In this document: positions 6,260-56,520 of the stretch, piece after piece
How the letters are laid out: every line of letters begins with the position of its first letter
How positions within the stretch are numbered: position 1 is the first letter of the stretch
DNA from: Amphiscolops sp. MND2022
Taxonomy: Eukaryota
Direction of reading: 5' to 3'
Length of the DNA: 64,000 bases
NCBI GenBank assembly: GCA_964187785.1
Contig: OZ076415.1
Location: forward strand, 43,586,001 to 43,650,000
The notes under the pieces: generated by a model
What the model saw: the letters and a program-made list of their open reading frames with translations, nothing else
What the model was told of the DNA's origin: nothing
Database searches by the model: none
Translations under genes and position numbers: made by a program

Positions 6260-8106
6260 TGTCGCCGGCTTACCCGTGCGAGATGTCCGGAGTGCAACAT
6301 CGATGACACAGTCAACGCTGCTTACCCATCATGATGGCTGTCTACCCGAATATGGACAAGAACTTGATAAACATTTCAGACTGTAAACTTAAACAATGCT
6401 TGTTGTTGTTCGTTTATTAAAATGTTGCTTTTAGTTGTACATTTCATCTAAAATGATGATTGTTGAATGTCGTTATTGTTGTTACTGTTTCACCCATAGG
6501 GTGCGTTGATCAATTGAAAAACAACTGGAAAGGTAACGCCAAAGTTACCTAAACAGTGCTAAATCTTTGTTTTGTCGTCTTAAATCATAGGAAAGAATTA
6601 AATTCAATGGTCCTATATATCTTTCCTACATTAAATCATTTGTAGTCCAATCATGAGGAAAACAATCAAAAACAGTATGACGATCCATTTAAAATCAGCA
6701 TAATGATTTCGTGCGTTTATTTAATACTGATTATGCGGTCTTATGCAGTTTTCACAAAACAGCATATGCGGTTTTGTTAAAGAAACAGCATAATGGTTAT
6801 GTACGCAATATAGTTTATACTTTGTATTGCATTATGCGGAAATTCAGCAGAAATAGCATGATGACTTCAGTTAAAAACAGCATATGCGGAAATTTAGTAG
6901 AAACAGCATGATGACTTGAGTTAAAAACAGCATATGCGGAAATAGAGCAGAAACAGCATGATTTTTCAGATTGGAAACAGCATATGCGGAAACCCCGTGG
7001 AAACAGTATGACGTTTCAATGTAGGAACAGCATATGCGGAAATTTGACAGAAACATTTTGACGTTTTAACTTGAAAACAGTATAAAGATTCTTATTGCAG
7101 TTGATAAAATTATTCTGAATTAAGAGGTTTTCATGAGACAGTAATATACTGCATTATGATGTAAAACAGTATAATTTGCAGCATTTTCAGTGTTACGACG
7201 TTGTAAGTCCCAGTGCTATATTTAGACCTTCCAGGAGTCTGACGTAATATCATACTTTTAACATTTAACCCTAGAAACATGACGTTATGATGATTTGCAT
7301 AAAATTGAAAGTCATGTAACTAAAAAATCACATAATAAAATCAGTTGAAGAAAGACCATCAAAAAATCATTTTTCTAACGATCATTCGAGAAATATCGCA
7401 CATTCAGAGCAGTCACTCAATTTCACAAACAACTCGAAATCCACAAACTTCGCAGTTTCTTTTCTCTGTAAAAATAACTTCCAAAGTTTCATTTTGCCAA
7501 AATATCTTTGTAATTCAAAGATTTTCGCGCCTAACATTGTTTCCATCATGGGAAACAAGAGAAATAGACGATCAAGGAGAATAGAATCTCAATCATCAGA
7601 CAGAGACGAAATTTCTTCGGAAACAAGCTTCACTCAAGGTAATGCTACTTTAGTTGGTGTTTCTGAAAATGTTATCACTACTCTTGACAGGAACTTAGGC
7701 AGCGAACTAACAGTACCTTCTCAAATAAGCAATGAGATAGAAGTTATTTCACAAAGACTAACAGAACAGAATAACTACAAGATGTCACAGATCGAAGAGC
7801 AACTAAATAACAAATTCGAAGAGATACTTAAGGAGATTAGAACAAACAAAAACTACATTGTAATAACTGATGAAGAGGATGCCGAGAACAATCAGCCCGG
7901 TCCTTCTAACTATAGAAATAAGGGTCTCAGGAACAAACACGCATCAAGTTCAACATCAGATAAAATTAGGAATCAAGATGACCGATTCTATCCGTCTGAA
8001 ATGAGTGAATTGAGACAACCGTACACTCCCCTTGGGATTGCTGAACACACTTTAGACGAAACCATCATCATAAATGAAAACAGACAGGAAAGGGCCGATC
8101 ATCACA
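6260..8106 (+). repeat. 5' LTR of Gypsy A (1847 bp)
   Basis: tgtcgccggc...gatcatcaca; direct repeat of 22323-24170 with scattered substitutions. Confidence 0.95.
6750..7060. repeat. About 50-bp tandem array (about 25-bp half units) inside the Gypsy A LTR
   Basis: Repeated aaacagcatatgcggaaa...aaacagcatgatg units. Also present in the 3' LTR copies (about 21440-21740 and 22810-23110). Confidence 0.85.
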
Positions 8107-9191
8107 TGGTGACCGGACCTACAAAGAACATCCTGAGACAAAGTTCGACTAACTCCAACACCACAAATACACAAGGACCACACGCACAAACTCCTCTCGA
8201 GCATCCTGAACCAACAGATCCTGTCAGTCAAATTGTTATAGCAATCAAAAATCTCCCACGAAGAAATACCGAACCACCCGACAAACACACTTACTTTCAA
8301 CGGGAAACTAGAAAAAATTGAAAATTTCGAGTATTTTGAAAATCTTTTCCACACAACACTCAAAATGCAACCACCCCTCACGGAGGACATGAAAATCAAC
8401 AATTTTCATGCCCATCTAAGAAGACTAGCATTGAAAACTTTTAAAAACATCCAAAGAACTTCGACAACAACACTTGAAGATATTTTAGTAGTCTTCAGAA
8501 GGAAATATGTTAAGCCTGAATCCAGTGACTCTGCAAAACACAGATTTACCCGGCTCATGTTCCAACCAGAAAATCAAAAACTACCCGACTTTCTTGAAGA
8601 CCTCCAAGAAAGCGCTGAAAAGCATTTGGTGAAGCAGCACCACAGATGATTGAGTGCCTGATATATGCAAAAATGCCCTCTCATCTCAAAAAAATCAATC
8701 AACCAGGCTTACCTCGAAAACGGTACCTATGAACAAATCGTGAAACATCTAGAAAGAGAGATGGAGCTCAATGGACTCGAAGCAGATGAGCCCCTAGTGA
8801 AAACTCAATTAACTGCAGTCAAACAACAAACCAACACACAAAACACTAAAACACCCCCACAAAACACAAAAACAAAAACAAAAATTCCAAACACAGTACC
8901 CAACAACACACTTCAAGATAACCAATGCCGATATTGCAAGGATGAAGGCCACATAGCAAAAGAGTGCCCAAAACTTGCAAAACGACAGAAAATTTATCAA
9001 AACACAAATGCACAAAGATGTTCCCATTGTAACACCCCTGGTCATGAAGAACCAAACTGTTACTTCAGAGCAAACATGGAAAATCGTCCACCTAAATGGA
9101 CACTTACTGAAACCCAGAAAAAACTAATCGAAGAATATAAAAAATCAAACAAAACACTCTCAAACTTTCAACATCGAAGAATTTAAACTAA
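7548..9191 (+). pseudogene. gag: gag of Gypsy A, frameshifted; the ATG lies inside the LTR
   Basis: MGNKRNRRSRR start at 7548. Fragments 7494-8321, 8365-8649 and 8665-9186 align with the intact gag of B. Two CCHC knuckles (CRYCKDEGHIAKEC, CSHCNTPGHEEPNC). Confidence 0.9.
8107..8120 (+). promoter_or_regulatory. Primer binding site of Gypsy A
   Basis: TGGTGACCGGACCT directly after the LTR-terminal CA. TGG complements tRNA CCA; the cognate tRNA is uncertain (the first 8 nt match the tRNA-Trp-type PBS). Confidence 0.7.
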
Positions 9192-9261
9192 TAAAGCCAC
9201 GCCTTCAAACAACAACACCCCAAAAACAATGCTCAGCTGATGACTGGCAGCATCCGCCGAG
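9182..9261 (+). promoter_or_regulatory. -1 ribosomal frameshift signal of Gypsy A
   Basis: T TTA AAC heptamer just before the gag stop, followed by GCCACGCC and a hairpin at 9232-9261. The same arrangement occurs in B. Confidence 0.75.
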
Positions 9262-12200
9262 CCCCAAACCTAAAAAAATCACAACCTACAATCACAACTT
9301 GACAAACAAAAGTGACACTCCGACTGCAAACACTCAAACTACACCACCCGACCAGCTTCAAGAGGACCTTAATGACTTACTCAAAGATGCCCCAGATAAT
9401 TACCTACTACGGCCTATGTTTGAACCTGAAATTGAACCCGAAACACAAAATCAGCAACCCACAATCTTGCGACCTCAACAAACACAAACTGACCAATTAA
9501 ACGTACAATCCACATCGACAACCCAAACTGACGATGACACTACATCGGAATTAACCAAAACTCTCTTCAGTGCGTCTCCTGGAAAACAACCTCTCATTGA
9601 TGCTAACGTTTTTAATCACCTCACAACAGACGAAGGTAATAACGTCGCATACCTAAAATTTTCCACAAACCTTACCCTCAAAAAAAAGCGTCATATGTAC
9701 TATTTCCCAATGGATTTTGAAAAGTTAACTCTGGATGGACTCATTGATACTGGCGCCCTTACAAGAAGATCTCAACAAAATAAAACTCCTTTCAAACGAA
9801 GCCATAAAAAATATTGGTCTAGCACCCAATTTTCAAATCATGGTGGCAAATGGTCAACTTGAGCGACCCATCGGCACCGTCTTACTTCAATTTGAAGTAG
9901 CAGACTTCCAATTTCAAGAGAACTTCATTGTCATGAAGGTACTACCCAACCCATTATTCGGACTGTGTTTTTTTACAAAGACACAATGCCATGTTTGACA
10001 TTCGACAAGGGATTATTACTTTCCCTTACCTGTCGATGCAACTACGTCCAGACCACACAACAAATACCCGAACAGCAACACCCCTTCTAACAGAAACTTC
10101 ATACACCCTACAACCCGGAGAAACCCTCGCAATCTCCAGCAAAATGCCACACCTGATAGATCACAATGCCACAGGTATTGTCACTCCGTCGTCACATATG
10201 GAAGATCACGAAAGTATTTTCATTACATCTTCCCTGAATACGGTTAATAACAATGCAGTGGGCTACCAAGTGATCAATTTTTCGGGTATGCCTTACACTC
10301 TTCCTGTAGATACACACATGGCAGACATCCGAGTTCTTACGCCCGAACAGATTAAACACATCAAACCTGTTGATCCATCAACCCTCACAATCATGATGCA
10401 TCAACACATGGAAAACACGGATCTATACCTCAACCAATTGATGAAAACAAATCAATCATCAGATGAACCAGAAACTTACTGGTTCCCAACACCTGAGGAA
10501 CCTGGGGATCCAGATACATACACTCCAATACAACAACACATATATGGTGAACTACTAGAACTCAAACAGCTAGAACAATTAAACCCAAACGACAACGACG
10601 AGTCAAGTATGAAATTTCTCAGTCACTTCGACTGGACAGACACTACCCTAAGCCCGTTCGAAAAACAACATATAGAAGACATTCTAGTACAATATCACAT
10701 CTTCGCAAGACATTGTTTCGATATAGGTACCAATAGAGAATTCAAGGTCAAACTGACTCCGAATGATGACAGACCAGCCTACAGTCAAAGTCTTCCTACA
10801 CCCATCAACCTCAAGGACGACATAACTGTTGAACTGGCCCTTCTTCAACGTTATGGAATCATCACCACCCTACCGTTCTCTAAATACGCAAGCCCTATTT
10901 TTGCCCAGAGGAAACCAAACGACGGAGGCCTTCGACTTTTGGCGGATCTGCGCAAAATCAACAACTTCATCACTCAAGACTACGTGAACAACAATCACCC
11001 AGTTAGCACGTTGTCAGATGCAGCACAGCATATGGCCGGAAAAACTTTTTTACAAACTTGATTGCTCTCAAGCATATCATTGCTTGCAAATGGCAGACTA
11101 TCAGTCCATACAGATGTTAGCCTTTAATTTTGCGAGTCGAACATTTGCATATCGCCGCCTTGCACAAGGTCTCAGCCGATCACTGTCTGCTTTCTCATCC
11201 TTCATGAGAGAATATTTGGATAAAGCAATCAAAGCTGATCAGTGCGCTCAATATGTCGATGACATCGGCATCGCTGCGAACGATTCTACCCAACTTTGCA
11301 TCAACATCAAGACAGTCTTTGAATGCATATGCAAAGCAGTACTCAAACTTACGATGGCCAAATGCCATTTTGGATTCAAACAAGTTGACTTCTTGGGTCG
11401 GACAATTACCCCAGAAGGAGTCTCGCCACAAACTGAAAAAGTCAAACAATTCCTTCAAAAACTCAAATTTCCGAAATCCGAAAAAGCACTTCAGAGATAA
11501 ATTGGGTTTCTCAACTACTACAGAAACTACATCCCTCGCTTATCAGAAAAACTAACACCCTTTTTCAAATTGCTCAAACAAACATCACAATTCTCCATTC
11601 CGGATACAATTCTTGAAGCATTCAAAAATCTCAACCAGCAACTGCATTAATCATGCAAACTTGCTCTCAAACAACCGATCAAAAACAAACAACTCATTTT
11701 TTTGACCGACGCTAGCTTTACAGCGGCAGGATATGCCCTCATGATTGAGGATGATCCCGACCAAAAGCTCCAATCTAGAAGGAAAACCTATGCTCCAATA
11801 GCCTTTGGTTCAAAAACTTTTAATCCAACCCAATTGAAAATGTCCATATACGCAAAAGAGTTCCTAGCAATCTTTGCGTTTTCTGAATTTGGACGCTTAA
11901 TGTGGGGCAGCGTTTTTCCTGTTATCGTCTTCACAGATAACAGATCTGTAACACGCTTTTTTCAAACCAAAATCAGCCCTCCGGCTCTTTGGAATGCATG
12001 CGAATACGTCCATCAATACAATATCGTCATTGCACATGTTGCCGGGGCCATGAATACGGCTGCAGACTTCCTATCGCGAACTGAATCGAACCCCACAGAA
12101 AAACTTGAAATGAACATCCGCAATGATGTCAATACAAAAGCAATTGAAGTTAACATACAGTCCACTGGGGTCGCCGAAGAGGAACTCCTTTACATACTTC

Positions 12201-14150
12201 CTGGTGAATGCCCCACAGAACAACAGTTGTGGGAAGAAAAAGAAGCAACTCGACAATCAGCTAAAACTGAAACCCACAACGAACCGGAAAATGAAGTGTT
12301 CGAACTACAAACTTTCCACAAACCCACAGCGGGAACCATCAACTATAGGGAGGGCCACTTCAAAGACAACGCAAAAATCCGCTTAGAACAAAACAATGAT
12401 GAAGTTCTACGTAACTTGAGAGCCAAAATTGAAGGCGAACCCTACGACGAAACAGAATTCACACAAGACTACCGATACAAACATTATTTACAAAACATCA
12501 CGAGGATTGAAATCAAGCAAGATGTCCTAACAAAAGGATACTACAATGACACTGGGATGATATCCCATTACCAAATTCTTCTACCTAAACAACTCCTAGA
12601 TGAATTCTTTCATGCCCTTCATGGTCATAAGGCAAATCATCCGGGAAAACTAAAATGATCCAAGAAGCACGACAATAATACTACTACCCGTGCATTGCCA
12701 AATATATCCGGAATTGGGTGACAAAATGTCAAATGTGCATCCAAAACAAACGGATCAACAATGACCTACTTAAAACGGAACTACTAAACTGTCCCGAATG
12801 GGATTTGGGCCCAGAGGACATTCTACAAATGGACATCCTTCTCAATCTCCCACCAAGTGGAGGACATGACAATATCATCACTGCAATAGACGTGTTCTCA
12901 CGCTATTTGTTTGCCCATCCAGTCACGAGAATCACTGCTCCAGCAGTGGCAAAAATCATCATGGACATTTTGTGTAAACACACATAACTACCCACAACAA
13001 TCATTACCGACATGGACACTCAATTTAATTCTCAGGTTACAAAAGAAGTAGACGCAGTCCTGAGCATAGAACTGAAACATGCAATGACAAAACACGCCCA
13101 AACAATTGGACTGTTAGAACGTACTCATGCATCAGTCAAAGCGCACCTTAAGGCAGCCACTGGAGAATTTAGAAATAATTGGCACAAGTTTCTACCATTG
13201 GCAGTCTCAAACCACAATACAACCTATCATGCAACACTCGGATATGAACCTACACGGGTCTTCCATGGAAGAATTCCACACAATATGTTAGATTTCAAAC
13301 TTGGATACAACCCAAATCCTCGCTTCCAACCCCAAACTGAGGTAGCAGAGGAAATACAAAGAAGGATTGCTTTACTTCATGATCAAACGAAGAAAAATAT
13401 CATGCAATCTTACCTCAAATATAAAGCATATTACGACAGAAAAGCAAAGGCCTCACCTCTAACGACAGAGGATTATGGCTTTATCCTGAATCCAAAGGCC
13501 GACACGAATTTCGTTGGGTTGGTCCCTATAAAGTTGAAAAAGTCCTACCGAACAATAATTGTCCGAACAATAATATATATTGTTCGCAGATTGGGCACAA
13601 ATAAAACCCAACTACTCCACCGCATTTGACTACGAAAATACACTCCAGAGGCTCCTCTTGCAGATAATTTTGTCTGAGAAGCCAAATGGCAGAAAGAGGA
13701 TACACTTGTCTCTCAAGATGATCTATATGCCCATGCTTGGGACAGCAATTTTGGCAGCAGTCTATTCGATCCTGACCACGAAAATTGTGATCAACAAGAA
13801 GACACAGTGGAATATGAACCTACTTCTCAACCAAAAATATACCACCATCCCTCCCTCGATAATTCAAGAAATAATGGGGGGATCCCAGCAAGACAACCTG
13901 CTGTGAACGACAAAGAACCTCAAATAACCGAAAACACTTCTTCAGCAAATGAAAATCATGAGCCCATTCCAGAAACTTCCAGAAATCCAGAAGATATTCA
14001 AGAAAATCCTACCCAAAATTCCCAAAAACTCCCGAAATCAACCCAGGAAATGACGCACAAGAAGCTGAAGAAAAAGTTAACACAAGAGGCGAAAAATATA
14101 ACCTACGCCCAAACCCTAACCCAAACAACTCAGACTCATACAGATATTAA
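9182..14150 (+). pseudogene. pol: pol of Gypsy A (PR, dUTPase-like, RT, RNase H, IN), disrupted
   Basis: LIDTGA, YVDD, TDAS...TDNRS...ADFLSR, HHCC and QMDIL...TDMD...LLERTH motifs are spread across several frames with stops and indels. Ends KYNLRPNPNPNNSDSYRY*. Confidence 0.92.
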
Positions 14151-14424
14151 AAGACAAATCAAGAGACTCAGACACTTGAATTATATGTTATGGTCTCCTT
14201 CGTCATTCTTTTTCTCATGTTTTTTATTCATTCTTTATCTCACTTCCAGTCAAAATTGGAAGCTATCAATTTTTTCTCTCCAAACTGGAGGTAGACATCA
14301 AATGAGGCGTAATCAGTCGAAAAAGAGAAAATAACCATACAAACACAACAGACATCAAATCAGCCAAAGTATAGAAAATTCGAGAGTCAAGATGAAACAT
14401 CAATGATCAATTCCAGTCAATTCT

Positions 14425-17400
14425 TCAATTCTTATCTCCTTTTTTCCTTCGGACAACTAACTTCTTAGCCCCAACGGGCTGGGACTCGCGCAAAATCAGC
14501 ACGTCCACTCTATAACGCGATCTCGAAAGGGCAGATGTTGCAAGCACAGGAGACCTTCGGGTGATATTGCCTGTTGCCCCAGTTCAGTTGGCTGTGGCCC
14601 GCTCTGAATTGGAGTAGGAGCAACAATTTTGGAAGGCCTAGGGGTCTTAGGAGATTGAGTGGGGCTTGAACTAGCTGATTGAGGCTTATCATGAAGCGCA
14701 ACCAAAGATTTCTCTTCATCGGAAATAGTACAAGTGTACCGAGAATCGAAATGGTTAGATATACGTCGCCGACGGGATGAACATGACGAAGTAAGTTCCC
14801 AGACTGACAGATAAGCGTCTTCTAATAGAGCCCGCCCTTTTTCCGAGCAAAGAGAAAACAGAAGAAACAGTTCTCGGGTTGGCATACAATTCAGACACAT
14901 TGGGTACCCCAACTAAAGAAGACTGAATGCTCTTAACACAGGACTGGAATTCACGGGAATCAGATGCAAGTTCGGGTAGCTCAAAAGTAAAAACAGAAGG
15001 GATAACGTGGACCCCTGACAAATTCAGAGTACATAGCTTGAAGACTGTAAATAAATTCTCCCGACACTGGAGTTCATAATAATTCGAGATAAAGCTGATC
15101 CATTCTCCCTCATGAGAAATGCTATGGGATCTGAATTTCTCCACAAACGCTCCATACTCACTCAGGACCAATGGTTTAATCGTGTGGGATATCCATTTTT
15201 GCTGGACCAAGTAGTCACAAAGTAACTCGGATTCATGTGTATAGTCCACCTCTTCCCCGTATCGGACAACGGCTTCATCGAACACAGAAAATCCTCGGAC
15301 AAGCTTAGACTTAGAGACTCAATGCCTCAGAAGAAGGATGCAGAGGTTTTTATAAAAACATATTGCTTGTTCGACAAATTGAGTGGGGGTGGGCAAATCC
15401 CTTTCTGCAACAAGCTTGGCAAAGTCCTTGTTTTGCATGAAATCTGCAACAGATTTTATAGGAAGATCTGGAGAAGTGAGATCAATGGACATAAAATGAT
15501 CCCAATGGGAGATGTTGCCAAGAAAAGAGTCAGGTAATATAATATAGAGCTGACTGTAAACAAATGTAGTAAAGGCGCTGTATACTCGGAAAACGTCAGG
15601 AGGGGAAACTCCATTCACCCCTTTAAAAGCATAGTTGTCTGAACACAAGTAATGATTAAAAACAACCTGAGTAACAGTATCAAATACCGACCAAAATAAG
15701 CTACCGTGAAAAGAGAACTAACAGTGTAGAAACACATTTCGGATCAAGAATAACTCGACTGCTAATGAGTTATCATTGAAGAAAGTTTCATCAAGAATCT
15801 TGGGCTGGGAAAGAAATAAAAATTGAAAACCAAATGGAAAAGAGAAAGCAAAATGGAAGAAACAATTTAATAATTACCTCTTTCATGTGGTATTTAAATG
15901 CTTTTAATCGGCCGGCGAGTCGGAGATGGGAGATGATTCCAATTTCGGCAAAACTGATCAAGAACCACAACTGACTCAACAAGACTGTACTTGAGGCTGG
16001 AGATGGCCTAAAACAACAATGTTACAATGATACTATGATAACGCATTGAAATACGGATTAAAATCTGTAATTCTGATCCATTATGCGGTTTTCCGAACAC
16101 CGCATAAGATGCCAATCGGTACACAGCATAGACAATGCTGTTTATGCGGATTTCAGAAGAAAACAGCAAGAGAAGAAACCAGTATGCGGTTTTCAGAAGA
16201 AAACAGCATAAGAAGAAATCAGTATGCGGTTTTCAGAAGAAAACAGCATAAGGAGAAATCGGCATGCGGCTTTCACGAGAAAACGGCATGAAAAAACAAA
16301 CTATATCGTCTATACCGTTTTCAGGAGAAAACGGCATAGAAGGATGCCTTACGGGACTCAGAAGAAAACAGCATAAGAAGAATTCGGTATGCGGTGTTCA
16401 GAAGAAAACAGCATAAGAAGAAACCAGTATGCGGTTTTCAGAAGAAAACAGCATAAGAAGAACCAGTATGCGGTTTTCAGAAGAAAACAGCATAAGAAGA
16501 AACCATTATGCGGTTTTTGAAAGAAACTGCATAAAAGAAACCATTATGCGGTTTTAAAAGAAAACTGCATAAAAGAAATCAGTATGCGGTTTTGGAAGAA
16601 ATCAGCATAAAAGAAACCAGTATGTCGCTTTCGCGATAAATCAGCCTAAAAAGTGACGTACACTACGTAGAAGAAAATGATATGCGGCAAAGCATAAAAA
16701 CAGTATGAAGGAATACATTACAATCAAACTGGCCGCAGGATGAGAGCACTTAAATCTTCATAAAATTTGTCCATTCGTTATGCTGCTTTATGCGGTTGTC
16801 AGAGCGCAGCATAAGAACAAAACATACTATATTACATGAATCCCCCGACAGTGATAAAACGGCTGAATTAGTATTATGAATGGTCTACAACGTGGAATTT
16901 TATGTAAAACATCCATGAAACAAAGCTCAAAGAGGTAATTGAGAAAAATTACTTTACGGAGTTCAGGAAGGTCGTTCAACCAAGTAGACCCAGAAGCGGT
17001 TCGAAACTTCATCAGAAAAGACTGTAGTACGCTGTGATAGTCATAACGGTCCAGAATCTTGACAGTGGGTCCCGCTAACAACTTGTCCAAATCTTCGTGT
17101 GAAAAGGTAGGCACCACGCACATCGAAGGCACTTGAACGGATTCGGTAATGATTGTTTTGGTGGTACGACCATCGAAGCCAAGGAATGAATAAAGAGGAG
17201 GTACACTCGGGAATGCAGCAATAAAAGAACTGACGACCTGAAGAACTTCTTTCGCGATCATGAGACTGTTTGGGATTTCGGCTAGTAAAAGATTGTTGAA
17301 TACGTTTCCAGACCAGAAAGTTAAGACCACTTGGAAATTATCCTGATTGGTGTGAAATTGGAGTGAGAATTGACCCGACTGACCAATTGCAGTAACTGAG

Positions 17401-18870
17401 TAAGACAGTAAAGTGCGGAACATGTTGACCAAGATTCCCTGCAAAAGCAAAATGTGGTTAACTAAAAGAATGGTGATTAAAAAGACACTCAAAAAGATAG
17501 GAAAATACTTACAAAAACACGATCTTTATCCCAGCTGTATTGAGGCACCTTAATTGGTCCTCTGACATCGAGCCCGAGGTTCCCCCAGAGGGAGGTGAGA
17601 GTATCTAAGTCACCGCCATACTTCAACCCAGTCAACAGAATTCGTAATTGGCAGCAAATTGGGGTGCTTGGGTCTAATTCATCAGTTGGCACAGGAAGTT
17701 TGCGTTGTAACATTCCCCGAGAATAGGAGCAATGGGAATTTCCAGTTCAGCTTTCTCTCGTGCTGCAGCTAAATCGGCCCCAGTGAGCTCCAACTCATTT
17801 TTTCCGTAGAGGGGCATTCCAGGAGTTTCCATCCTGATGCGGTTTTCGCGGACTAAATGGGCGTCAGGTCTATAATGGGAGAGAATTTCAAGAGAACCTT
17901 TGGTCTTCAATGACCACTCAATGTGGCAAACTCTGCAACGCCACTTATGAGGGTTGTTGGTGGAATCAATTGGTCAGTTACGAAGAACTTGAAGATGGGA
18001 TGTTTCCTGTACATAATCCCGGTCAACTGCATTCTTGGTCGCGCCCCCTAGAAACTGAGTGTTGATCACCTGGGTTAATGCGGACTGTACTTTTTTCCCT
18101 TACTCTTGTCTGCCTTCTCCCTTTGCGAGAATGTCCTGCGGGGGGTATGATTTGACCTCCTGTTGTACTGGCGGGCGACACCATCAAGGATGATTCCATA
18201 TTCGTCACACTGGTTTCCGTCCCTGTTGAGGTCCCAGGAGCCTGCGACACGGGCATTGCAAATTGCTCTATCAATCTTGAACTGATAGTGGTGGTTAATT
18301 CAGAAACCATAGTTCGCATGCGTTGCTCTAACGCCAACAAGTCCAGACTGGTAACATAGTTACTTGAGGAAGTAAGTTGACCAGCTTCTGTTGCAGTGGA
18401 TGTTTGAGCGATTGGGGATATAGCTCTTGGAGTAATGGCCTGAGGGGTCCGATTGAGGAAACTGGAAAATGGAGAAAGACAAGTTTTACCCATTTGTGGA
18501 GTTGACCCTGAAGAACCACTTGGTCCGACTCTACGATCGTTCTTCTCTGAATGACCAGTAGCATGTAAGAAAGGTTGTTCAATGTCATCTTTGGATTGGG
18601 GATTAGTGTCGTGAAGCAGGGATTTCCGTGAAGCAGATGCAAGAAAGCTAACAGTGGTTTCTGTACGAGGTCCATCAGAATTTGAAGCATGGATGCTTTT
18701 ATCGAAGGAATGTCTTATACCGTATACATCGACAGAAGAATTTGAACCTTCATTGCACTCCATTCGATGATCAGGTGTCGAATGATGAGTTGGATTACCA
18801 AAGGGAAGTAAAGGGGTTAAATCGACAGTGGAAGACGGATCCTGTGCCGGGAAAGCAGAATTGAGTGTAG
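14425..18870 (-). pseudogene. Antisense multi-exon gene of Gypsy A (zinc-finger, hAT-transposase-like), frameshifted
   Basis: Predicted exons 17513-18870, 16953-17438, 15878-16008, 15723-15804 and about 14425-15638, each bounded by GT/AG. The translations align with the B antisense gene (HKWRCRVC...SHYRPDAHL, GILV..., PKILDETF...). Confidence 0.85.
16080..16700. repeat. About 40-bp tandem array inside an intron of the Gypsy A antisense gene
   Basis: Units such as aaacagcataagaagaaaccagtatgcggttttcagaaga, repeated more than 10 times. Shares AAACAGCAT and TATGCGG with the LTR array. Confidence 0.9.
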
Positions 18871-20046
18871 CTGAAACAAATACGAAATCAGCAAATATAG
18901 AAAATTGGGACAGCCAAAGAATTGACTGTTTAAGATAGTAAAGCCTGATCAACTCTCACTTTAAACAAACAGGACTAGCTAGTTCGAAAAATTATTCACG
19001 ACTTGAAACAGGAAATCCGGATTTCAACCTGCGAATAGTTGGTGAAAACTGAAATTTGTTCAACAATCGGAACGGGATGTTCGAAAGAACCTTCGATGAT
19101 TGTTTGAAATCAAATCTTCGCTCCATTTTAATTAAATTGGACGAAAAGAAATTCGAAAAAACAGACCTTGTGTTGGCTCTTCGCTTTTTTCTTGGCCAGT
19201 TTTTTCCCTTCCATTGTAGAGTAGATTCCCACAGAGTAGAAATTGAAATTCCTTCATGGTAGATGCAAATTTCAAAAATGAGACGCAATAAGACTCAAGA
19301 AGTGATTGTAACTGGTAAATGAAGAAGAATAGAGATTTGGAAAGGACGAAACCGTAAATGAATCTGACAAACTATGGAAACTGAACGAAATAAAGGAAGT
19401 AGAAGATCAGTGTGAAAACTCTTGGGGGACTGTTAAACGACGAAGGAAAGACTATGAAAAGACAAAGACTTGGAAACTTGAGATAGTATGTAAATTCGAA
19501 GAAGAAACAATCTTGAAAGGCGTGGCAAATTTGCTTATTGCTTTTATATCATTTGTCATAGGCTGATAAAAAAACGAATCACGTTGTTACGTCAGAAGTG
19601 AATGATGCTACAAAGGTGTGAAAACCTTCACTTTGATGAACCTGAATGAACCTACGATATATTAAATTATGAGCAATTAAAACTAGTCAGACGGAATAAG
19701 AAGACGACAACCGAAACATAAAAGAAATTGAAAAAAAAATTTCAGGTTTTGATGATTGTTTATATGACATTAACAATTTGACCGGTGCTATTCCCCCATT
19801 TCTCATGATAAATTACCTGACAACCCGGGAAATGGGTAATTCGAGATATGTTTTGATGCTATTTGTAAGAAAAACCCCGTAACCCAATAAAAAACTATAA
19901 AATCCTATCATTCTGATCATAAATCTCCAAAAAATTGCCGCTTATTTTCCTCCCTCTTTTTGACAAATTCCTTGAGAATTTAATAATCATATTGTGTTAA
20001 ATCTTCTTGAAACTTGACGGGAATCGAATAAACCCATAGTCAAACA

Positions 20047-20996
20047 ATGGAGAGTACACCACGAAACTCGATACTTAATAGAACTGATTCAATGAACCGC
20101 GCATTGGACCGAATCAACACCTCAAGTAGTTCGGGGGAAGAACTCATGATGGAGCCCCTCTTAGTGAACGATCTCGATGAAAGGTTTAGATCTGCCCCAT
20201 ACCCTCTGACAGACATGTCCACAGCCTTTATGGGGGCAGCAGGAGCAGTATTATTCCCTAACAGTGCCGATCCAAAAGCAGGAGATGGCCAACAAATTGA
20301 AACTAGGAACTCCCGTATCGAGATAATGAACTAATGGACTTCATGGATGACGTATCTAATATATCCTCCCTGACCTTCATCGGATCATCAGAAGAAAAAG
20401 ACAACCGGTTCGTTGGTTCCAATTTCGCTAATGTGGATCAGGCTGAAAGAAACAGCTATGGTCGACCAGTCCAAAGGGTACAACCTATGGTCGGAACCTC
20501 GCGTGTAACAAGAGCAACAGTGAATCCCCCGCTCGTACCAAGTAGCAGGAGCGCTTTCTCAGTAGTAATACCCGAACAACGAAGAGCTCCAGAAATACAA
20601 GCACACCCACTTATGCAAGCTAATTACTTGCCTATGCCCGTTCCATTTTACCCCAATAATTGGAACAATATTACACATCCTCAACAAAACTTTAATGGTC
20701 AAGCTCAATTTCAGCCTCAGGGACCACCTAATGGGCCCATATTGCAGTTGAACCCTCCAGTAATGCCTGAAGTGGCAGGGTTTTGTGCTGGCTCTTCCAA
20801 AACTTATGACCAAATTGCTATCGAGACGCTCACCCACTATGTTGCGTGGTCCGAATATCCAGAGGAAACAATTCGCGATCGCAATGTGAGGTCAAGAGCA
20901 TTCGTTAATGGGTTTGGAGCAGCGCTGATCTGCTTCAAAAATGCTGGACTGTCGCCGGCTTACCCGTGCGAGATGTCCGGAGTGCAACATCGATAA
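20047..20996 (+). pseudogene. Sense ORF3 of Gypsy A (frameshifted), ending inside the LTR
   Basis: ORFs 20047-20334 and 20334-20996 align with B ORF3 (TAFMGAA..LFPN, NSYGRPV, DQIAIETL...VRSRAF.NGF.AAL..FKNAG). Confidence 0.8.
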
Positions 20997-22122
20997 AACA
21001 GTCAACGCTGCTTACCCATCATGATGGCTGTCTACCCGAATATGGACAAGAACTTGATAAACATTTCAGACTTTAAACTTAAACAATGCTTGTTGTTGTT
21101 CGTTTATTAAAATGTTGCTTTTAGTTGTACATTTCATCTAAAATGATGATTGTTGAATGTCGTTATTGTTGTCATTGTTTCACCCATAGGGTGCGTTGAT
21201 CAATTGAAAAACAACTGGGAAGGTAATGCCAAAGCTACCTAAACAGTGCTAAATCTTTGTTTTGTCGTCTTAAATCATAGGGAGGAATTAAATTCAATGG
21301 TCCTATATATCTTTGCTACATTAAATCATTTGTAGTCCAATCATGAGGAAAACAAACCAAAAGAGTATGACGATCCATTTAAAAACAGCATAATGATTTC
21401 GTGCGTTTACATAATACTGATTATGCGGTATTATGCAGTTTTCACAAAACAGCATATGCGGTTTTGTTAAAGAAACAGCATAATGATTATGAACGCAGTA
21501 TAATTTATACTTTGTATTCCATTAAGCGGAAATTCAGCAGAGACAGCATGATGACTTGAGTTAAAAACAGCATATGCGGAAATTCAGTAGAAACAGCATG
21601 ATGACTTGAGTTAAAAACAGCATATGCGGAAATCTAGAAGAAACAGCATGATGGTTCAGATTGGAAACAGCATATGCGGAAACCCCGTGGAAACAGTATG
21701 ACGTTTCAATGTAGGAACAGCATATGCGGAAATTTGAGAGAAACATTTTGACGTTTTAACTTGAAAACAGTATAAAGATTCTTATTGCAGTTGATAAAAT
21801 TATACTGAATTATGAGGTTTTCATGAGACAGTAATATACTGCATTATGATGTAAAACAGTATAATTTGCAGGATTTTCAATGTTACGACGTTGTAAGTCC
21901 CAGTGCTATATTTAGACCTTCCAGGAGTCTGACGTAATATCATATTTTTAACATTTAACCCTAGAAACATGACGTTATGATGATTTGCATAAAATTGAAA
22001 GTCATGTAACTTAAAAAATCACCCAATAAAATCAGTTGAAGAAAGACCATCAAAAAATCATTTTTCTAACGATCATTCGAGAAATATCGCACATTCAGAG
22101 CAGTCACTCAATTTCACAAACA
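20950..22122 (+). repeat. Truncated extra LTR copy made by a 1373-bp tandem duplication
   Basis: The LTR start tgtcgccggc occurs at 20950 and again at 22323. The first copy breaks off at atttcacaaaca (22122) and sequence from about 20758 resumes at 22132. Confidence 0.9.
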
Positions 22123-22322
22123 GTAATGCTACAGTAATGCCTGAAGTGGCAGGTTTTGTGCTGGCTCTTCCAAAGCTTATGACCAAATTGCTGTCGAGAC
22201 GCTCACCCACTATGTTGCGTGATCCGAATAACCAGAGGAAACAATTCGCGATCGCAATGTGAGGTCAAGAGCATTCGTTGATGGGTTTGGAGCAGCGCTG
22301 ATCTGCTTCAAAAATGCTGGAC

Positions 22323-24170
22323 TGTCGCCGGCTTACCCGTGCGAGATGTCCGGAGTGCAACATCGATAAAACAGTCAACGCTGCCTACCCATCATGATGG
22401 CTGTCTACCCGAATATGGACAAGAACTTGATAAACATTTCAGACTTTAAACTTAAACAATGCTTGTTGTTGTTCGTTTATTAAAATGTTGCTTTTAGTTG
22501 TACATTTCATCTAAAATGATGATTGTTGAATGTCGTTATTGTTGTCATTGTTTCACCCATAGGGTGCGTTGATCAATTGAAAAACAACTGGGAAGGTAAT
22601 GCCAAAGCTACCTAAACAGTGCTGAATCTTTGTTTTGTCGTCTTAAATCATAGGGAGAAATTAAATTCAATGGTCCTATATATCTTTGCTACATTAAATC
22701 ATTTGTAGTCCAATCATGAGGAAAACAAACAAAAACAGTATGACGATCCATTTAAAAACAGCATAATGATTTCGTGCGTTTACTTAATACTGATTTTGCG
22801 GTATTATGCAGTTTTCACAAAACAGCATATGCGGTTTTGTTAAAGAAACAGCATAATGATTATGAACGCAGTATAATTTATACTTTGTATTCCATTAAGC
22901 GGAAATTCAGCAGAGACAGCATGATGACTTGAGTTAAAAACAGCATATGCGGAAATTCAGTAGAAACAGCATGATGACTTGAGTTAAAAACAGCATATGC
23001 GGAAATCTAGAAGAAACAGCATGATGGTTCAGATTGGAAACAGCATATGCGGAAACCCCGTGGAAACAGTATGACGTTTCAATGTAGGAACAGCATATGC
23101 GGAAATTTGAGAGAAACATTTTGACGTTTTAACTTGAAAACAGTATAAAGATTCTTATTGCAGTTGATAAAATTATACTGAATTATGAGGTTTTCATGAG
23201 ACAGTAATATACTGCATTATGTTGTAAAACAGTATAATTTGCAGGATTTTCAATGTTACGACGTTGTAAGTCCCAGTGCTATATTTAGACCTTCCAGGAG
23301 TCTGACGTAATATCATATTTTTAACATTTAACCCTAGAAACATGACGTTATGATGATTTGCATAAAAATGAAAGTCATGTAACTAAAAAAATCACCCAAT
23401 AAAATCAGTTGAAGAAAGACCATCAAAAAATCATTTTTCTAACGATCATTCGAGAAATATCGCACATTCAGAGCAGTCACTCAATTTCACAAACAACTCA
23501 CAATCCACAAACTTCGCAGTTTCCTTTCTCTGTAAAAATAACTTCCAAAGTTTCATTTTGCCAAAATATCTTTGTAATTCAAAGATTTTCGCACCTAACA
23601 TTGTTTTCATCATAAGAAACAAGAGAAATAGACGATCAAGGAGAATAGAATCTCAATCATCAGACAGAGACAAAATTTCTTCGGAAACAAGCTTCACTCA
23701 AGGTAATGCGACTTTAGTTGGTGTTTCTGAAAATGATATTACTACTCTTGACAGGAACTTAGGCAGCGAACTAACAGAACCTTCTCAAATAAGCAATGAG
23801 ATAGAAGTTATTTCACAAAGACTAACAGAACAGAATAACGACAAGATGTCACAGATCGAAGAGCAACTAAATAACAAATTCGAAGAGATACTTAAGGAGA
23901 TTAGAACAAACAAAAAGTACATTGTAATAACTGATGAAGAGGATGCCGAGAACAATCAGCCCGGTCATTCTAACTATAGAAATGAGGGTCTCAGGAACAA
24001 ACACGCATCAAGTTCAACATCAGATAAAATTAAGAATCAGGGTGACCGGTTCTATCCGTCTGAAATGAGTGAATTGAGACAACCGTACACTTCCCTTGGG
24101 ATTGCTGAAGACACTTTAGACGAAACCATCATCATAAATGAAAACAGACAGGCAAGGGCCGATCATCACA
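22323..24170 (+). repeat. 3' LTR of Gypsy A (1848 bp)
   Basis: Matches 6260-8106; followed by TSD GCCTG. Confidence 0.95.
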
Positions 24171-33683: not shown

Positions 33684-33809
33684 AAGGCAATTTTGTTGTG
33701 TTTTTGACAATTTTTTGATAGACATCGTACATTAGAATGTTGAAAAAACGTTCAACAAGGCACAAACGCGTTGTCCAATAGTCTTCTAAGTCTCCAGAAG
33801 AAAAAGGTA

Positions 33810-41964: not shown

Positions 41965-44329
41965 GCGAAAAAAATTCCGAAACATTTTTTTGAAAAATTT
42001 TTAGAAATATTTTTTCGCTAGAATTTTTATCGAATAGTTTCATAATACCGAAAAACCTCAAGGTTGCCTCTATGCTCGCTAAACGTTTTTTGTTTACTAA
42101 AAGTAGAAGGGGGGCTTTGGTAAAAAAAATCAAAGAAGCTCGTCTAGTATCTAAAAAAACTAAACCATTTGGTCTTTTCCACCTCTGCAAGCATTAAAAT
42201 TTTGGTTTAGCTAGTGACTCGAACCCACGTTAGTCTGAAATGATCCGATAAAATGGTTTGTTGGTCATCCACGGTATGAATAGAATAAGAATATAAAACG
42301 TAAATTTGATTGGAAAGCAAAATTTCTTGAAAATAGCTGGATAAATCATTGTACAAAACAGTCGTTTACAATGGGGATGAAAAAAAATAAAAGCTCAAAT
42401 CTTTGCCCAGGTTAACCATTTTTTCTTCATTAATCTATCTTCTAGGATTATATATAGGATTTATCTATAGAAACTCCATTTTTATGCCGCAGCCTAAAAT
42501 AGAAGTATTTATTTACACAAAAATATATGGTATAAAATTCTCTTCTAAGCTAAAAATAGGAATGATGGCAGACAAAGATTTAATGCCTCGAGAGCTCAAT
42601 AATTTAGTGTCTTGAGATTTCTTTTGACAGCTTCATTTTCAAGGTAGATACACTTTCGATATTTCCCAGTATTCCAAGGTGGAATATCTCGCTCTTTTTT
42701 CAGAAATTGTCACTTCGTCAACCACACTTAGCGCAACTGAAGAATTATCTATTATTAGGTACCTCGTTTTGCTTGCATTCAGTTGCTTTGGCAAAAGAGA
42801 AATTGTTTGAAGAGTTAGACGGTTTTCTCCAATCTGATGTAATAATATCATGTTAATTGGAAACCAAATAGGAAATTACACATTTGGTTAACTCATGTTA
42901 TTTCAATAATAGGCAAACCCCTACTTTAGCATACAATTTCCTCTTACAATACCCTTTTAGCATACAATTTCTTGTTATGCTTAGAATTAGAAATTGTGTG
43001 ATAATAAATATTGCTTGCCCATTATTTTCATACGACTTTTAAAACGCAGCAAATTATCTAGATAATTTGCTGGGTTCTAAAAGTCGTAAGAAAATAATGG
43101 TAGATAGCTACTATTCGGAGTTTCTGGAGGAGCTCAATTGATTTTTAAAATATATGGAAGTAAAGAAACCTCAGCCACGCAACAGTTTTTGAACTGAAAT
43201 TTTGGCACAAAGTGACTGAATAACATTTATATTTTAATCGCAGACTGATCAAGTTGACAAAAACGACATCTTTGCCACTCAAGGTATCTGAGAAATTTAC
43301 CCGTGCTGACACTCTAGGGCACTACAGCGATGGCTACCGATTAGCCATCGATTGCCACTGGTGTACACAAACTTGACTCAATTGAAAAAATTTACAACAC
43401 TTGTAACTGATTGACCACCGGTTGGTTAACCGTCGGTTGAAAAACTTCACAAGTCAAACTTTCATTTTCATCTCGGAACTACCAAGGTTAATGGTGAATC
43501 ACGAGCAAAATCTCAACTGTTAGACTCGCATTTTATTGTCTCAGGGTACCATGATGATCGGGAATAGCGAATAGCTCTCTCAAACCACAATGGTTTTGCT
43601 AAGGGTCATTTTTTCAGTAGTTATCAATGGTCAAACACACAGGTTCAAATAGAAAACCTTGTTGCTGTTGGTTTTTGTCTCAAGCATTAATCATGATAAT
43701 TTGTCTCTTAGTTTTTTGGGAAAACTTTCATCTTGTGCTCTTGACTCAGCAAAAACGTGGAAACGATGATGGAATTGAGTTGTCAGAATTGCCATCAATT
43801 TCAATTATCATTACCAATAACTGAAAACCAAATTATTAAAATTTGAAAATTTAATTTGAAATTTATTCCTGAATAATAATTTTTTTCAGCCGAAACTGTT
43901 GCAAATACATACATTTGGTTGCTTTTCAGAGTTCCTATTGACATTATTCGATTGGACGTCGTTCACACGGAGATGATTTTGCGTCGCCATCACTAGATTG
44001 GCTAATGGAAATTTAACCACAAAATGTAAAGGTCAGTGTCGCGTCCCCAAAGGTGCGATGGGTCCGGTGTGCAACTTTAAGAAGATAAACAACGTCTACA
44101 ATGTTGTGTCAAACTCTAAAAACTCATCCACTAGTCATGTAAGTTATGTAAATATATTACTTCTAATCAGGGTCTCTTAATTGTTTTACTTTGTAAAAGT
44201 AACACCTGGATGTACTTTGGGCAAATTCAAAAGCCTTAATGATGATTTTATTAGTCCAAATAACACATGTGCAGTGCTACTATTTCATTCTGAACAAATG
44301 ATATTAATTGGATACGTCATCATACAATA

Positions 44330-44560
44330 TGATTACTATTGAATATGCATCACTGCGCGCATTTGTAATTCTCAGTATACGTCATTATACGTTTCAACCA
44401 TTAATGAGTATACGTCACTATACGTATTTGTGATTTTCATTATGCGCCATTATGCGGTTTGTGCAGTGATGAATATACGTCAATATGCGTATTTTCTCAT
44501 CCAAGTTTATATGCGTCATCCCGCGGTTCAAGGAGTAGCGAGTACTCGGCATTGTGCGTT
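44330..44560. repeat. TATACGTCA/TATGCG degenerate array in the LTR of B
   Basis: Repeated tatacgtca(c/t)tat(a/g)cg units. Confidence 0.7.
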
Positions 44561-44708
44561 TCTCGCTATGTTCCTTTTAATTTGAAGGATTAACTTTATG
44601 TTTCCATATATAGTGATAAAAGTCCATAAAATATCGTTGTTTAATACCTTTCTAGGGTCCTTTAGACAGCGGAATCGTTTCTGTATGTCATGATATGATG
44701 AATCATAA

Positions 44709-44718
44709 TATATAAATA
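44709..44718 (+). promoter_or_regulatory. Candidate TATA box in the LTR of B
   Basis: TATATAAATA about 300 nt upstream of the gag ATG; mirrored at 58988. Confidence 0.45.
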
Positions 44719-45007
44719 GGATGACGACATTCTGACGAGGCGCTATTATTAGGTTTTCCTGGGAATGATGCTAGTAAAATTGCGTGTCATCCTTTTGTAA
44801 TTTTTGGGTTTTCTTTAGAAATAGAAGGAGCTAACACAAGTTGAATAACTTTCCTCAAGTTCAGTTGGTTTTACTGGACCATAAAGCAATCATTGTAAAT
44901 CATCTTCATTTTTGGACATCCTAAACAACACCGCCTATTTTCATACAAACTTTCATTTCAAATTCAAATTCTTGACCCTGCAAACTGATCGTTTTCACTT
45001 GAGAAAG

Positions 45008-46702
45008 ATGGGGAATAAGAGAAACAGGAGATCTAGAAGACTAGAAACACCGTCTCCAGACAGAAACCCGATTGAGGCACAAGTAGATACGTCAACTCAA
45101 GGTAATGAGACTTTGAATAATTTTAACTCAGTTTTACAAGAGAATTTAGGTGAAAACGTCTCAGAAAATCCAATGGTTGAACCAAGCCAAATTAGTAACG
45201 AAATCCAAGTTTGGACCCAGATTATAGAACAAAAGAATAATGATAGAATCGAGAGAATGAGAGAAGAAATAGACAACAAGTTCGAAGCAATTCTGAAAGA
45301 AATCAAGTCAAATAAAAGTGCATCAACAGTAACAAATCCGAGATCAGAGCTCAATGAAAATCAGGAACCACAAGCGTCGGGGTCCAAAACTAACAAGCCT
45401 ATAGGAGTTCACGCATCTCTAAATGAAAATTCAGATTCGGAAGATGAAGATTATCCTTTAAGGGCTTCAAAAATGAAAGATCTTAGACATCCTGCAAAGC
45501 CTTTGTTTCGAGCTGAATCAGATGTAGATGTAACTATACATTCAGACGAAGAGTCTGATGCTGAACCCCTAAGAGAGGATTATCACATGGTGACAGGAGC
45601 CAACCGACAACTCCATAGGCAAAGTTCACAAAATCCTCTAAACGACACAACAGGATCCCACGCAAACCAAAATGCATCAAATTCAACAACAACACCACTT
45701 GATCCAGTCAATCAAATCGCACTTGCCATAGAAAAACTGGCGAACAAAAACTCACCACAATCACTGTTTCATCCTAAAAATACACTCACCTTCAACGGAA
45801 AAAACGAGAAAAACGAAAAATTTGAATACTTCGAAGACTTGTTTCACACAACACTCCGAATGCAACCAAACCTAACAGAGGACATGAAAATCAATCATTT
45901 TCACGCCCATCTCAGAGGTTTGGCCCTCAAAACCTTCAAAAATATACAGCGAACTCCAAATACCACCTTAGAAGACATTCTGAAAGTCTTTCGCAGAAAA
46001 TATGTAAAACCGGAGTCTAGTGCATCTGCAAAACACAGATTTAACAGACTCTCATTTGACCCAGAACACCAAAAACTCCCGGATTTTCTAGAAGAACTCC
46101 AGGAAAGTGCCGAAAAAGCGTTCGGGGAGAACGCCCACCAAATGATAGAGAATCTACTCTATGCCAAAATGCCTCCCCACCTTAAAAAATCCATTAATCA
46201 AGCTTATCTTGAAAATGGAACATACGACCAAATCGTCAAACATCTCGAAAGAGAGATGGAGCTAAATGGTTTGGAAGCTGATGAACCCCTGGTGAAAACC
46301 CAGATGTCGGCCACGAAAAAAGAACAAAACGCTGAAAAAACCAACAAAAAACAAAATGAAAAAGCCAAAACACAAACACCAAAAACAGTACCGAATAAAA
46401 CCCTCAAAAACGATCAATGCCGCTACTGCAAAGAGACAGGGCACATGATGGCTGAATGCCCCAAATTAACCAAACGACGTAAACTTGAGGAAGACCCAGA
46501 TGCTGAAAAATGCCAAAATTGCAATACACCGGGCCATAACGAAGAAAATTGCTACTTTGGCGCAAACATGGAAAATAGACCACCTAAATGGACTCTCACT
46601 GAAGCCCAGAAAAAGGTGATCGAAAACTATAAACAAGCTAAAAAACCAATCAAACCACGAATGGAACGACAACAACAATCCTCGTCGAAGGATTTAAACT
46701 AG
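45008..46702 (+). CDS. gag: Gag of Gypsy B (intact; N-terminal about 193 codons lie in the LTR)
   Basis: ATG MGNKRNRRSRR at 45008, capsid-like region, two CX2CX4HX4C knuckles (CRYCKETGHMMAEC, CQNCNTPGHNEENC). Confidence 0.93.
   Translation: MGNKRNRRSRRLETPSPDRNPIEAQVDTSTQGNETLNNFNSVLQENLGENVSENPMVEPSQISNEIQVWTQIIEQKNNDRIERMREEIDNKFEAILKEIKSNKSASTVTNPRSELNENQEPQASGSKTNKPIGVHASLNENSDSEDEDYPLRASKMKDLRHPAKPLFRAESDVDVTIHSDEESDAEPLREDYHMVTGANRQLHRQSSQNPLNDTTGSHANQNASNSTTTPLDPVNQIALAIEKLANKNSPQSLFHPKNTLTFNGKNEKNEKFEYFEDLFHTTLRMQPNLTEDMKINHFHAHLRGLALKTFKNIQRTPNTTLEDILKVFRRKYVKPESSASAKHRFNRLSFDPEHQKLPDFLEELQESAEKAFGENAHQMIENLLYAKMPPHLKKSINQAYLENGTYDQIVKHLEREMELNGLEADEPLVKTQMSATKKEQNAEKTNKKQNEKAKTQTPKTVPNKTLKNDQCRYCKETGHMMAECPKLTKRRKLEEDPDAEKCQNCNTPGHNEENCYFGANMENRPPKWTLTEAQKKVIENYKQAKKPIKPRMERQQQSSSKDLN
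45588..45601 (+). promoter_or_regulatory. Primer binding site of Gypsy B (inside the gag frame)
   Basis: TGGTGACAGGAGCC immediately after the LTR; tRNA identity uncertain. Confidence 0.7.
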
Positions 46703-46772
46703 AAACGCCACGCCTTTACACAAAATCACCACAAAAACAAAACTTAGCAGATGACTGGCAGCATCCGCTGAG
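46693..46772 (+). promoter_or_regulatory. -1 programmed ribosomal frameshift signal
   Basis: T TTA AAC in the correct phase before the gag TAG. The -1 frame is open without stops into the pol ORF. Downstream hairpin at 46743-46772. Confidence 0.85.
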
Positions 46773-56284: not shown

Positions 56285-56520
56285 GATTTAATATGCGGCA
56301 GTATGCGGATTTGCCAATAACGAGTATACAGCAGTATGCGCTTTGTCGACTTGAATTATGCGGCAGTATGCGGATTTGCCAATAACGAGTATGCGGCAGT
56401 ATGCGGAATTGCAAGGACGAGTACGCGGCAGTGTGCGGAATTGTCAGCTGGAGACTATGCGGCACTATACGGATTGAGCAGTGACGTATACTCGTCACCC
56501 TGCGGTTTACGCTGCATACA
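56285..56520. repeat. TATGCGG tandem array upstream of the antisense gene
   Basis: gagtatgcggcagtatgcggatttgccaataac-type units. Confidence 0.85.

Follow-up and report, generated by a model that had tools for sequence, protein, structure and literature searches.

A likely spliced antisense gene of probable hAT ancestry in Ty3/Gypsy retrotransposons of Amphiscolops sp. MND2022

Introduction

Retroelements are expected to shed introns; how, then, could a retroelement carry a gene with five or six of them, and what might such a gene do? This question is raised by two long terminal repeat (LTR) elements, A and B, in a 64,000-nucleotide stretch of the 1.07-Gb genome of Amphiscolops sp. MND2022 (assembly GCA_964187785.1, contig OZ076415.1, positions 43,586,001 to 43,650,000), hereafter called the window. 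In both elements, a minus-strand gene with six coding exons (exons 0 to 5) sits between pol and the 3' LTR. A preliminary description had proposed that element A independently conserves the exon-intron structure of this gene and that the pattern reflects selection on a spliced messenger RNA (mRNA). Our preferred reading, to which we assign a probability of roughly 0.55, is that a Ty3/Gypsy clade carries an antisense six-exon gene that is likely spliced, likely a disarmed hAT descendant, and likely an element-specific DNA-binding regulator acting on the clade's own dyad motifs.

Results

Conservation of the exon-intron structure

The nine splice sites previously assigned to A were all found on the minus strand, eight at the base given; the G of the TTAG/GCC acceptor lies at 16008 instead of 16009, so that intron 2 measures 945 nt, not 944 nt. 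The lengths that two exons have in common between A and B (486 and 82 nt) were confirmed, as were the A/B intron lengths of 74/143, 73/70, and 84/632 nt, and the fourth pair was corrected from 944/78 to 945/78 nt. In addition, both elements contain an upstream coding exon (exon 0, phase 1) that the earlier list lacked, and its donor context aligned in 9/9 A-lineage sequences. The copy in A is dead: besides an in-frame stop at 15321-15319, it has frameshifts near 19200, 18055, 17975, 17709, 15939, 14843, and 14592. The A-type and B antisense proteins were 44% identical in amino acids. When exon DNA of A and B was aligned and compared with shuffles, z values of 13.2 (3' part of exon 1), 6.4, 4.8, 2.6, and 12.2 were obtained; the 5' part of exon 1 gave 1.5 and the trimmed introns gave -0.3 to 1.4.

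We next compared 42 A/B copies, namely, 30 of 151 matches to the last exon of A, 10 of 111 matches to that of B, and the two window copies. The loci were chosen to span families, were top-scoring, and mostly had long open frames; ten frameshifted copies were corrected by hand. Rather than being lost in most copies, canonical GT/AG dinucleotides were kept at 328/336 splice sites, a figure that is biased toward young copies because top-scoring copies with long frames were selected, and the 8 non-canonical sites each occurred in single copies. Exon 2 was 486 nt long in 36/42 copies, exon 3 was 135 nt in 41/42, and exon 4 was 82 nt in all 42. In a comparison of 12 families, identity over the 30 exon bases next to each site was 0.48-0.68 with codon periodicity (0.36-0.51 at third codon positions), whereas identity inside introns was only 0.33-0.38, equal to background. 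Conservation therefore falls at the intron boundaries. Left unspliced, introns broke the frame in 154/164 instances, and intron 2 did so in 41/41 (L023, with an internal duplication, was excluded).

Ratios of nonsynonymous to synonymous divergence (dN/dS) were 0.081 and 0.099 in the two pairs without synonymous saturation. In 11 more within-lineage pairs, synonymous sites were saturated and amino-acid identity was 63-78%. Even the low-complexity N-terminal part had no stops and a lower proportion of nonsynonymous than of synonymous differences (pN < pS) in 8/8 pairs. Among ten close relatives of A, five had all five checked exon frames fully open. None of the 8 loci whose frames across exon 2 are unusually long was a processed, intron-less copy; each retained intron 1 in frame. 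The retained splice sites, the codon-periodic exons, the dN/dS of 0.08-0.10, the frame-breaking introns, and the intron-less junctions of clade C (below) support the proposal of selection on a spliced mRNA, and the gene is almost certainly, as far as sequence evidence can indicate, a spliced protein-coding gene. One qualification applies: A and B share the structure by descent, and selection has acted on the lineage of A, not on its dead copy.

On the gag-pol strand, the introns read CT..AC in 47/48 cases. From the LTR replication cycle, the spliceosome would thus be expected to leave them in the RNA before reverse transcription.

In 12 loci (L013, L014, L016, L027, and L101-L108), intron 1 was a stop-free multiple of three in length, so a retained-intron isoform is possible in those families. 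A shadow of the sense frames was also considered as the cause of the open antisense frames and was rejected, the sense frames being full of stops.

Intron loss in clade C and exchange of modules

A third group, clade C, was reached via distant proteins from a representative search (best 150 of 326 matches) and sampled at 20 loci out of 96 and 100 matches. Three representative proteins matched G000 at 29-35% only, and relatives therefore probably exist in other genomes. Clade C pol was about 50-60% identical to that of B, and the gene lay antisense adjoining pol in 20/20 loci, as it lay beside pol in 39/40 A/B loci. Introns 1 and 3 occupied the same places, with 72/80 sites canonical under automatic, uncorrected placement. 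Intron 2 was absent, and a fused exon of 621 nt (486 + 135) was observed in 16/20 loci. Furthermore, intron 4 was exactly absent in 4/20 loci (L071 and L076-L078); the junction there keeps the register that splicing predicts. Since L071 and L077 belong to different subgroups whose other members keep intron 4, two exact losses are likely. These exact junctions are indirect evidence, read from DNA, that a spliced RNA once existed. L061, judged by eye, has two extra introns in exon 1 and seven exons.

Trees were constructed from 26/28 copies, omitting L022 and L036, whose integrase pieces were short. In the tree of exon 5, A, B, and C were recovered with strong support; a quick integrase tree supported C and B and left A unresolved. 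Within lineages, pol and the antisense gene were uncoupled. In L017/L024, synonymous divergence (dS) of pol was 0.009 and the antisense gene was saturated; in winB/L038, pol dS was 0.155 and the gene was again saturated; in winB/L034, pol dS was 1.7 and gene dS was 0.31. Such uncoupling, also noted in L002/L014 and L061/L077, suggests module swapping by frequent recombination between families.

Dyad motifs in the long intron, the LTR, and the upstream region

Each of the two window lineages has a single long intron: in A types this is intron 2 (638-1300 nt), in B types intron 4 (547-672 nt). A tandem array lies in it, and the core motif of this array is found again upstream of the gene and in the LTR. 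In the A lineage, the inverted dyad ATGCKG-N14-CMGCAT was detected in 11/11 elements, and 100 of the 147 dyads pooled had spacer 14; it was present in both intron and LTR in 10/11, where spacer letters and periods differ (40 nt in the intron vs 50 nt in the LTR). In the B lineage, a direct dyad of the TATRCG-N4-TATRCG type was present in 5/5 elements at all three places (LTR, upstream region, and intron), and the intron 4 array has a unit of ~33 nt. Neither dyad type was observed in 150 kb of background. The word TATGCGG faced the sense direction in 30/31 places in A and 14/14 in B. Intron lengths had been described as differing freely between A and B. Intron content is not free: the long intron holds a lineage-specific motif array, and intron 0 has conserved blocks. 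Fixed half-sites at fixed spacing suggest a dimeric binder, and we put the chance that the antisense protein binds these dyads to regulate the element at slightly short of even.

In intron 0 (18871-19166 in A, 55477-55756 in B), the blocks TTTCCTGT and CTTCCG, which may be called ETS-like, were kept across families. Intron 0 may belong to an internal promoter that works in both directions, toward the antisense gene and toward the sense open reading frame (ORF) named ORF3. The antisense start codon lies ~1.7-2.4 kb from the LTR, behind this sense ORF, which argues for an internal promoter. Past the antisense stop, a conserved word (CTGATTAC..CTG type) was noted at ~90-115 nt, between the gene and the end of pol (about 14300-14315 of the window, minus strand, and in A-type loci). 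Within 330 nt after the stop, a variant poly(A) hexamer was present in 7/16 sequences and AATAAA in 0/16.

The protein and its link to hAT transposases

Exon 1 encodes a finger of the form C-x2-C..H-x5-H, preceded by a basic patch, in which C, C, H, and H were invariant in 17/17 sequences from all clades; the N-terminus ahead of it is variable and S/T/P-rich. Exon 5 of B was folded with a 74-row alignment, giving a mean predicted local distance difference test score (pLDDT) of 85.9, versus 40 for the single-sequence fold. Among 48,161 chains, the top structural match of this model was the Hermes hAT transposase (8edg_A; Z 5.2; root-mean-square deviation, 6.3), a weak match whose Z differs by no more than 1 from those of unrelated helical proteins and falls under the tool's typical chance best. 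Residues 1-245 of the model aligned to Hermes 368-609 over 178 residues, compared with 110 or fewer in the other 49 rows listed. In Atlas, a search using language-model features, 24/30 exon-5 matches carried Dimer_Tnp_hAT (score, 0.93-0.94), sharing 163-164 features, below the 170 typical of family members.

One W was invariant in 21/21 sequences and is likely the equivalent of a Hermes key residue. Where the D, D, E triad would lie, at the inferred strand ends and after the last helix, neither a conserved acidic residue nor a CxxH was found. Exon 2 is likely a remnant of an RNase H-like catalytic core without the conserved acidic residues, as judged by eye from its strand/helix pattern; profile tests of exon 2 for an RNase H-like domain were negative. 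A comparison with DUF4371 gave no match, and its positive control was also silent. Pfam and PDB sequence searches of the gene products returned nothing credible. No full-length homologue with a single exon was obtained, the exon-5 profile gave one chance match, and no homologues were detected in JGI metagenomes. A finger profile gave 96 matches of 351-718 aa, ENA records that resemble exon-1 ORFs of this antisense gene family. In our reading, the gene product is very probably catalytically dead, and the gene probably originated from a hAT transposase, its protein being a probable dead hAT derivative and not a member of an active family.

Setting of the two elements in the window

In the window, LTR elements form a nest (Table 1). 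Elements A and B are Ty3/Gypsy LTR retrotransposons with gag, TG..CA LTRs, 5-bp target-site duplications (TSDs), a primer-binding site (PBS)-like sequence, and the domain order protease, reverse transcriptase, RNase H, and integrase (PR-RT-RNaseH-IN), read in B. TGGTGAC, which is PBS-like, directly follows the 5' LTR in both A and B. No purine run that could serve as a polypurine tract was found just before the 3' LTR, where the stretch is ORF3 coding sequence.

Table 1. Coordinates of the two elements and their antisense genes (window positions)
Feature	Position	Strand	Remarks
Element A	6260-24170		LTRs 1847 nt, 3.6% diverged; TSD GCCTG; internal duplication 1373 nt
A 5' LTR	6260..8106	+	1847 nt, TGT..ACA; 50-nt dyad array and first part of gag inside
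A pol	9128..14331	+	Frameshifted
A exon 5	14425..15638	-	Helical domain, then disordered basic tail; stop and frameshifts in A
A intron 4	15639..15722	-	84 nt, phase 1
A exon 4	15723..15804	-	82 nt in 42/42 A/B and 20/20 clade C copies
A intron 3	15805..15877	-	73 nt, phase 0
A exon 3	15878..16007	-	130 nt in A; 135 nt in 41/42 copies
A intron 2	16008..16952	-	945 nt; ~40-nt tandem array about 16080-16790 with inverted dyad ATGCKG-N14-CMGCAT
A exon 2	16953..17438	-	486 nt, open
A intron 1	17439..17512	-	74 nt, phase 0
A exon 1	17513..18870	-	1358 nt; encodes N-terminal part rich in S/T/P, basic patch, and finger of C2H2 (BED-like) type; frameshifted
A intron 0	18871..19166	-	296 nt; sequence blocks conserved across A-lineage families
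A exon 0	19167..19214	-	ATG 19214; donor after 19167, phase 1, GTCTGT; frameshifted in A
A sense ORF3	20047..20993	+	Head-to-head with antisense gene; end inside LTR; no Pfam match
A 3' end	20950..24170	+	Partial LTR 20950-22122 from tandem duplication, then full 3' LTR 22323-24170
Element B	44037-59866		Two identical 1551-nt LTRs; TSD GTCAG
B 5' LTR	44037..45587	+	1551 nt, same sequence as 3' LTR 58316-59866; gag ATG 45008 within LTR
B gag and pol	44885..51126	+	Open frames; PR-RT-RNaseH-IN
B antisense gene	51432..55871	-	All frames open; intron 4 632 nt
B exons	55871-55757, 55476-54167, 54023-53538, 53459-53325, 53254-53173, 52540-51432	-	
B dyad cluster	56292..56504	+	Upstream of antisense start codon
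B sense ORF3	57304..58356	+	No Pfam match

The LTRs of A, B, and clade C loci include the first ~190 gag codons, which places the PBS inside the gag ORF and gives every 3' LTR a truncated gag start. ORF3, placed between the 3' LTR and the antisense gene, encodes about 310-355 aa, acidic and disordered with a basic C-terminus; its end overlaps the start of the LTR in A, B, and clade C loci, and an ORF of similar make-up occupies its position in clade C. In A, the 1373-nt tandem duplication (20755-23495) covers the end of ORF3 and most of the 3' LTR. Element B is flanked by a 466-nt inverted repeat pair (43428-43883 with 60153-60609). Elsewhere in the window, an open BEL/Pao polyprotein of 1407 aa (Peptidase_A17, DUF5641) at 3-4223 runs off the window start, a degenerate tandem array with a unit of ~190 nt spans 33780-35560, and a minus-strand ORF piece at 38049-38390 resembles, by eye, a membrane receptor exon.

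Discussion

In our reading, the introns would persist because the replicated RNA is the opposite strand, from which they would not be spliced out before reverse transcription; it is by this placement that the element could retain five or six introns. The rare exact losses would arise by recombination with complementary DNA (cDNA) of the spliced antisense mRNA, and intron gain or exact loss along the tree makes the clade a natural setting in which to test cDNA-mediated intron loss. Half-sites of the TATGCG type would be read by the zinc finger, and the dimer geometry, which is inverted in lineage A but direct in B, would be set by the transposase body; the two lineages offer a direct cross-binding test. 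By analogy with VANC or TnpA, the outcome would be a cognate family that is activated or shielded from silencing in trans. A fuller scenario, which we advance tentatively as somewhat less than an even bet, is that the clade captured a whole intron-containing hAT gene, disarmed it, and made it its own sequence-specific transactivator or anti-silencing factor co-evolving with the dyad arrays in the LTR and its own intron. Families would then be defined by a swappable gene-plus-LTR module instead of by pol, with introns gained and exactly lost inside a retroelement.

Several observations, besides the bias toward young copies, the low Hermes Z, and the feature counts in Atlas mentioned above, weigh against the preferred reading. 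Dyad arrays were found in 0/6 clade C elements; clade C keeps the gene without arrays, so they are not needed for its upkeep. A host factor could be the binder of the arrays, and since dyad type is physically linked to the gene, the fact that the two vary together is no independent evidence. In the introns, a branch-point-like motif showed no enrichment (22/48 vs 19.1 ± 3.4). As for hAT ancestry, Pfam reported zf-BED in 2/16 sequences only (best E, 0.049) and PF05699 in 0/74, a Foldseek search of exon 5 against PDB and viral libraries found nothing at E <= 0.001, comparison of profiles with hATs of the host (20 of 150 host PF05699 loci) gave no match, and the Atlas search with exon 2 returned unrelated bacterial matches.

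With every sequence-level hAT test negative, the gene might instead be a captured zinc-finger gene, of host or unknown origin, that encodes a helical domain. We regard this as unlikely, for language-model features and structural alignment both rank hAT first for exon 5, and domain order and spacing fit a hAT protein (finger, beta/alpha segment, invariant W, helical insertion, and C-terminal helices). The remote hAT-like matches and the many hATs in the host would also suit a nested DNA transposon that is still mobile or hitch-hiking. This idea is already largely refuted, and we give it almost no weight: there is no conserved DDE, and among the five longest pairs listed for each of 6 elements no terminal inverted repeat around the gene was shared (an 8-bp TSD was not searched). 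Moreover, the gene keeps its antisense position beside pol in all 20 clade C loci and in nearly all A/B loci, the trees of exon 5 and integrase agree on the deep splits, and frames are retained despite saturated synonymous divergence.

Other explanations concern function. With the same gene and origin, the protein might act on the cDNA or the particle, through end binding, nuclear import, or tethering to integration targets, with the dyads serving as host transcription factor sites. The persistence of the gene in clade C without arrays fits such a role, the basic stretches ahead of the finger and at the C-terminus might serve as nuclear signals, and the B-type repeats contain the CRE-like word TGACGT. 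A nuclear or transposition role has likewise been proposed for plant antisense ORFs (PMC7264820). We nevertheless see this as a minority possibility: dyad geometry changes together with the gene from lineage A to lineage B and has been retained at three distinct non-coding places, and integrase is nearly identical where antisense genes are saturated (L017/L024, pol dS 0.009; winB/L038, 0.155), so a partner in linked DNA fits better than a partner in pol. Alternatively, the gene could be a self-limiting brake like hbz of the type 1 human T-cell leukemia virus (HTLV-1), its protein or antisense RNA repressing the element or, as a dominant-negative dimer, excluding rival families or hAT transposons. 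Dead transposases can poison active ones, and the arrangement itself entails that the gene overlaps the genomic RNA convergently. Deltaretroviruses are also known to have spliced antisense repressors (PMC10186651). A brake nonetheless appears improbable given that purifying selection acts on the protein and not on RNA alone, that the family is very abundant, with thousands of unscored first-look candidates, and that the sampled host hATs show no detectable similarity as dimer partners.

Comparison with known systems

Antisense ORFs with tandem repeats and spliced antisense regulators are known. A literature search found no multi-intron, hAT-like antisense gene in an LTR retrotransposon, and Repbase/Dfam, subscription journals, and genome-paper supplements, which lay outside its scope, may describe one; term look-ups in PMC5408684 and PMC13524379 likewise gave none. 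The closest arrangement comes from plants, where the Ty3/Gypsy elements Retand/Tat, Grande, and RIRE2 have, between pol and the 3' LTR, a conserved antisense ORF (TRP28, PF04195) with family-specific tandem repeats in the same region; a DNA-binding regulatory role has been proposed (PMC11963269; PMC7264820). These papers call the function of the antisense ORFs and tandem repeats in Retand and Grande unknown. By contrast, the present gene has no PF04195 match, contains 5-6 introns (the word 'intron' is absent from the main text of both papers), and combines a C2H2 finger with a likely hAT body, accompanied by a second, sense ORF.

With respect to regulation, Arabidopsis VANDAL/VANC shares with lineages A and B, and not with clade C, a short motif amplified in the same orientation in non-coding regions of the cognate family; the VANC target arrays include the VANC intron (PMC5735166). 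TnpA evolved from a transposase, and transposase-derived regulators of plant DNA transposons lose the DDE (bioRxiv 10.64898/2026.08.24.746577). VANDAL/VANC and Spm TnpA are, however, DNA transposon systems using their own class of protein, whereas the gene studied here belongs to an LTR retrotransposon; binding has been shown there, whereas here it is predicted from motifs and one clade is without arrays. The hbz and aph genes are retroviral, driven from the 3' LTR, of the bZIP type, and have few exons; in the present elements, about 1.7-2.4 kb that include a sense ORF separate the start codon from the LTR. Like the gene described here, hbz of HTLV-1 and aph of HTLV-2/3/4 are spliced antisense protein genes in an LTR element, and they regulate its transcription (PMC10186651).

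Finally, the protein resembles hAT/Hermes and the domesticated ZBED/GTF2IRD2/FAM200 proteins in its N-terminal C2H2 finger and in the fit of the exon 5 model to Hermes 368-609, and its Atlas neighbors were Dimer_Tnp_hAT and FAM200/GTF2IRD2-like clusters. The hAT key residues given in PMC6027215 are D180, D248, R318, W319, and E572. Of these, only the likely equivalent of W is invariant here, and ~100 additional conserved residues follow the dimer region, unlike in Hermes. If the hAT origin is true, one transposon class has domesticated the enzyme of another: ZBED, GTF2IRD2, and FAM200 were co-opted by the host, whereas this protein would have been co-opted by another transposon.

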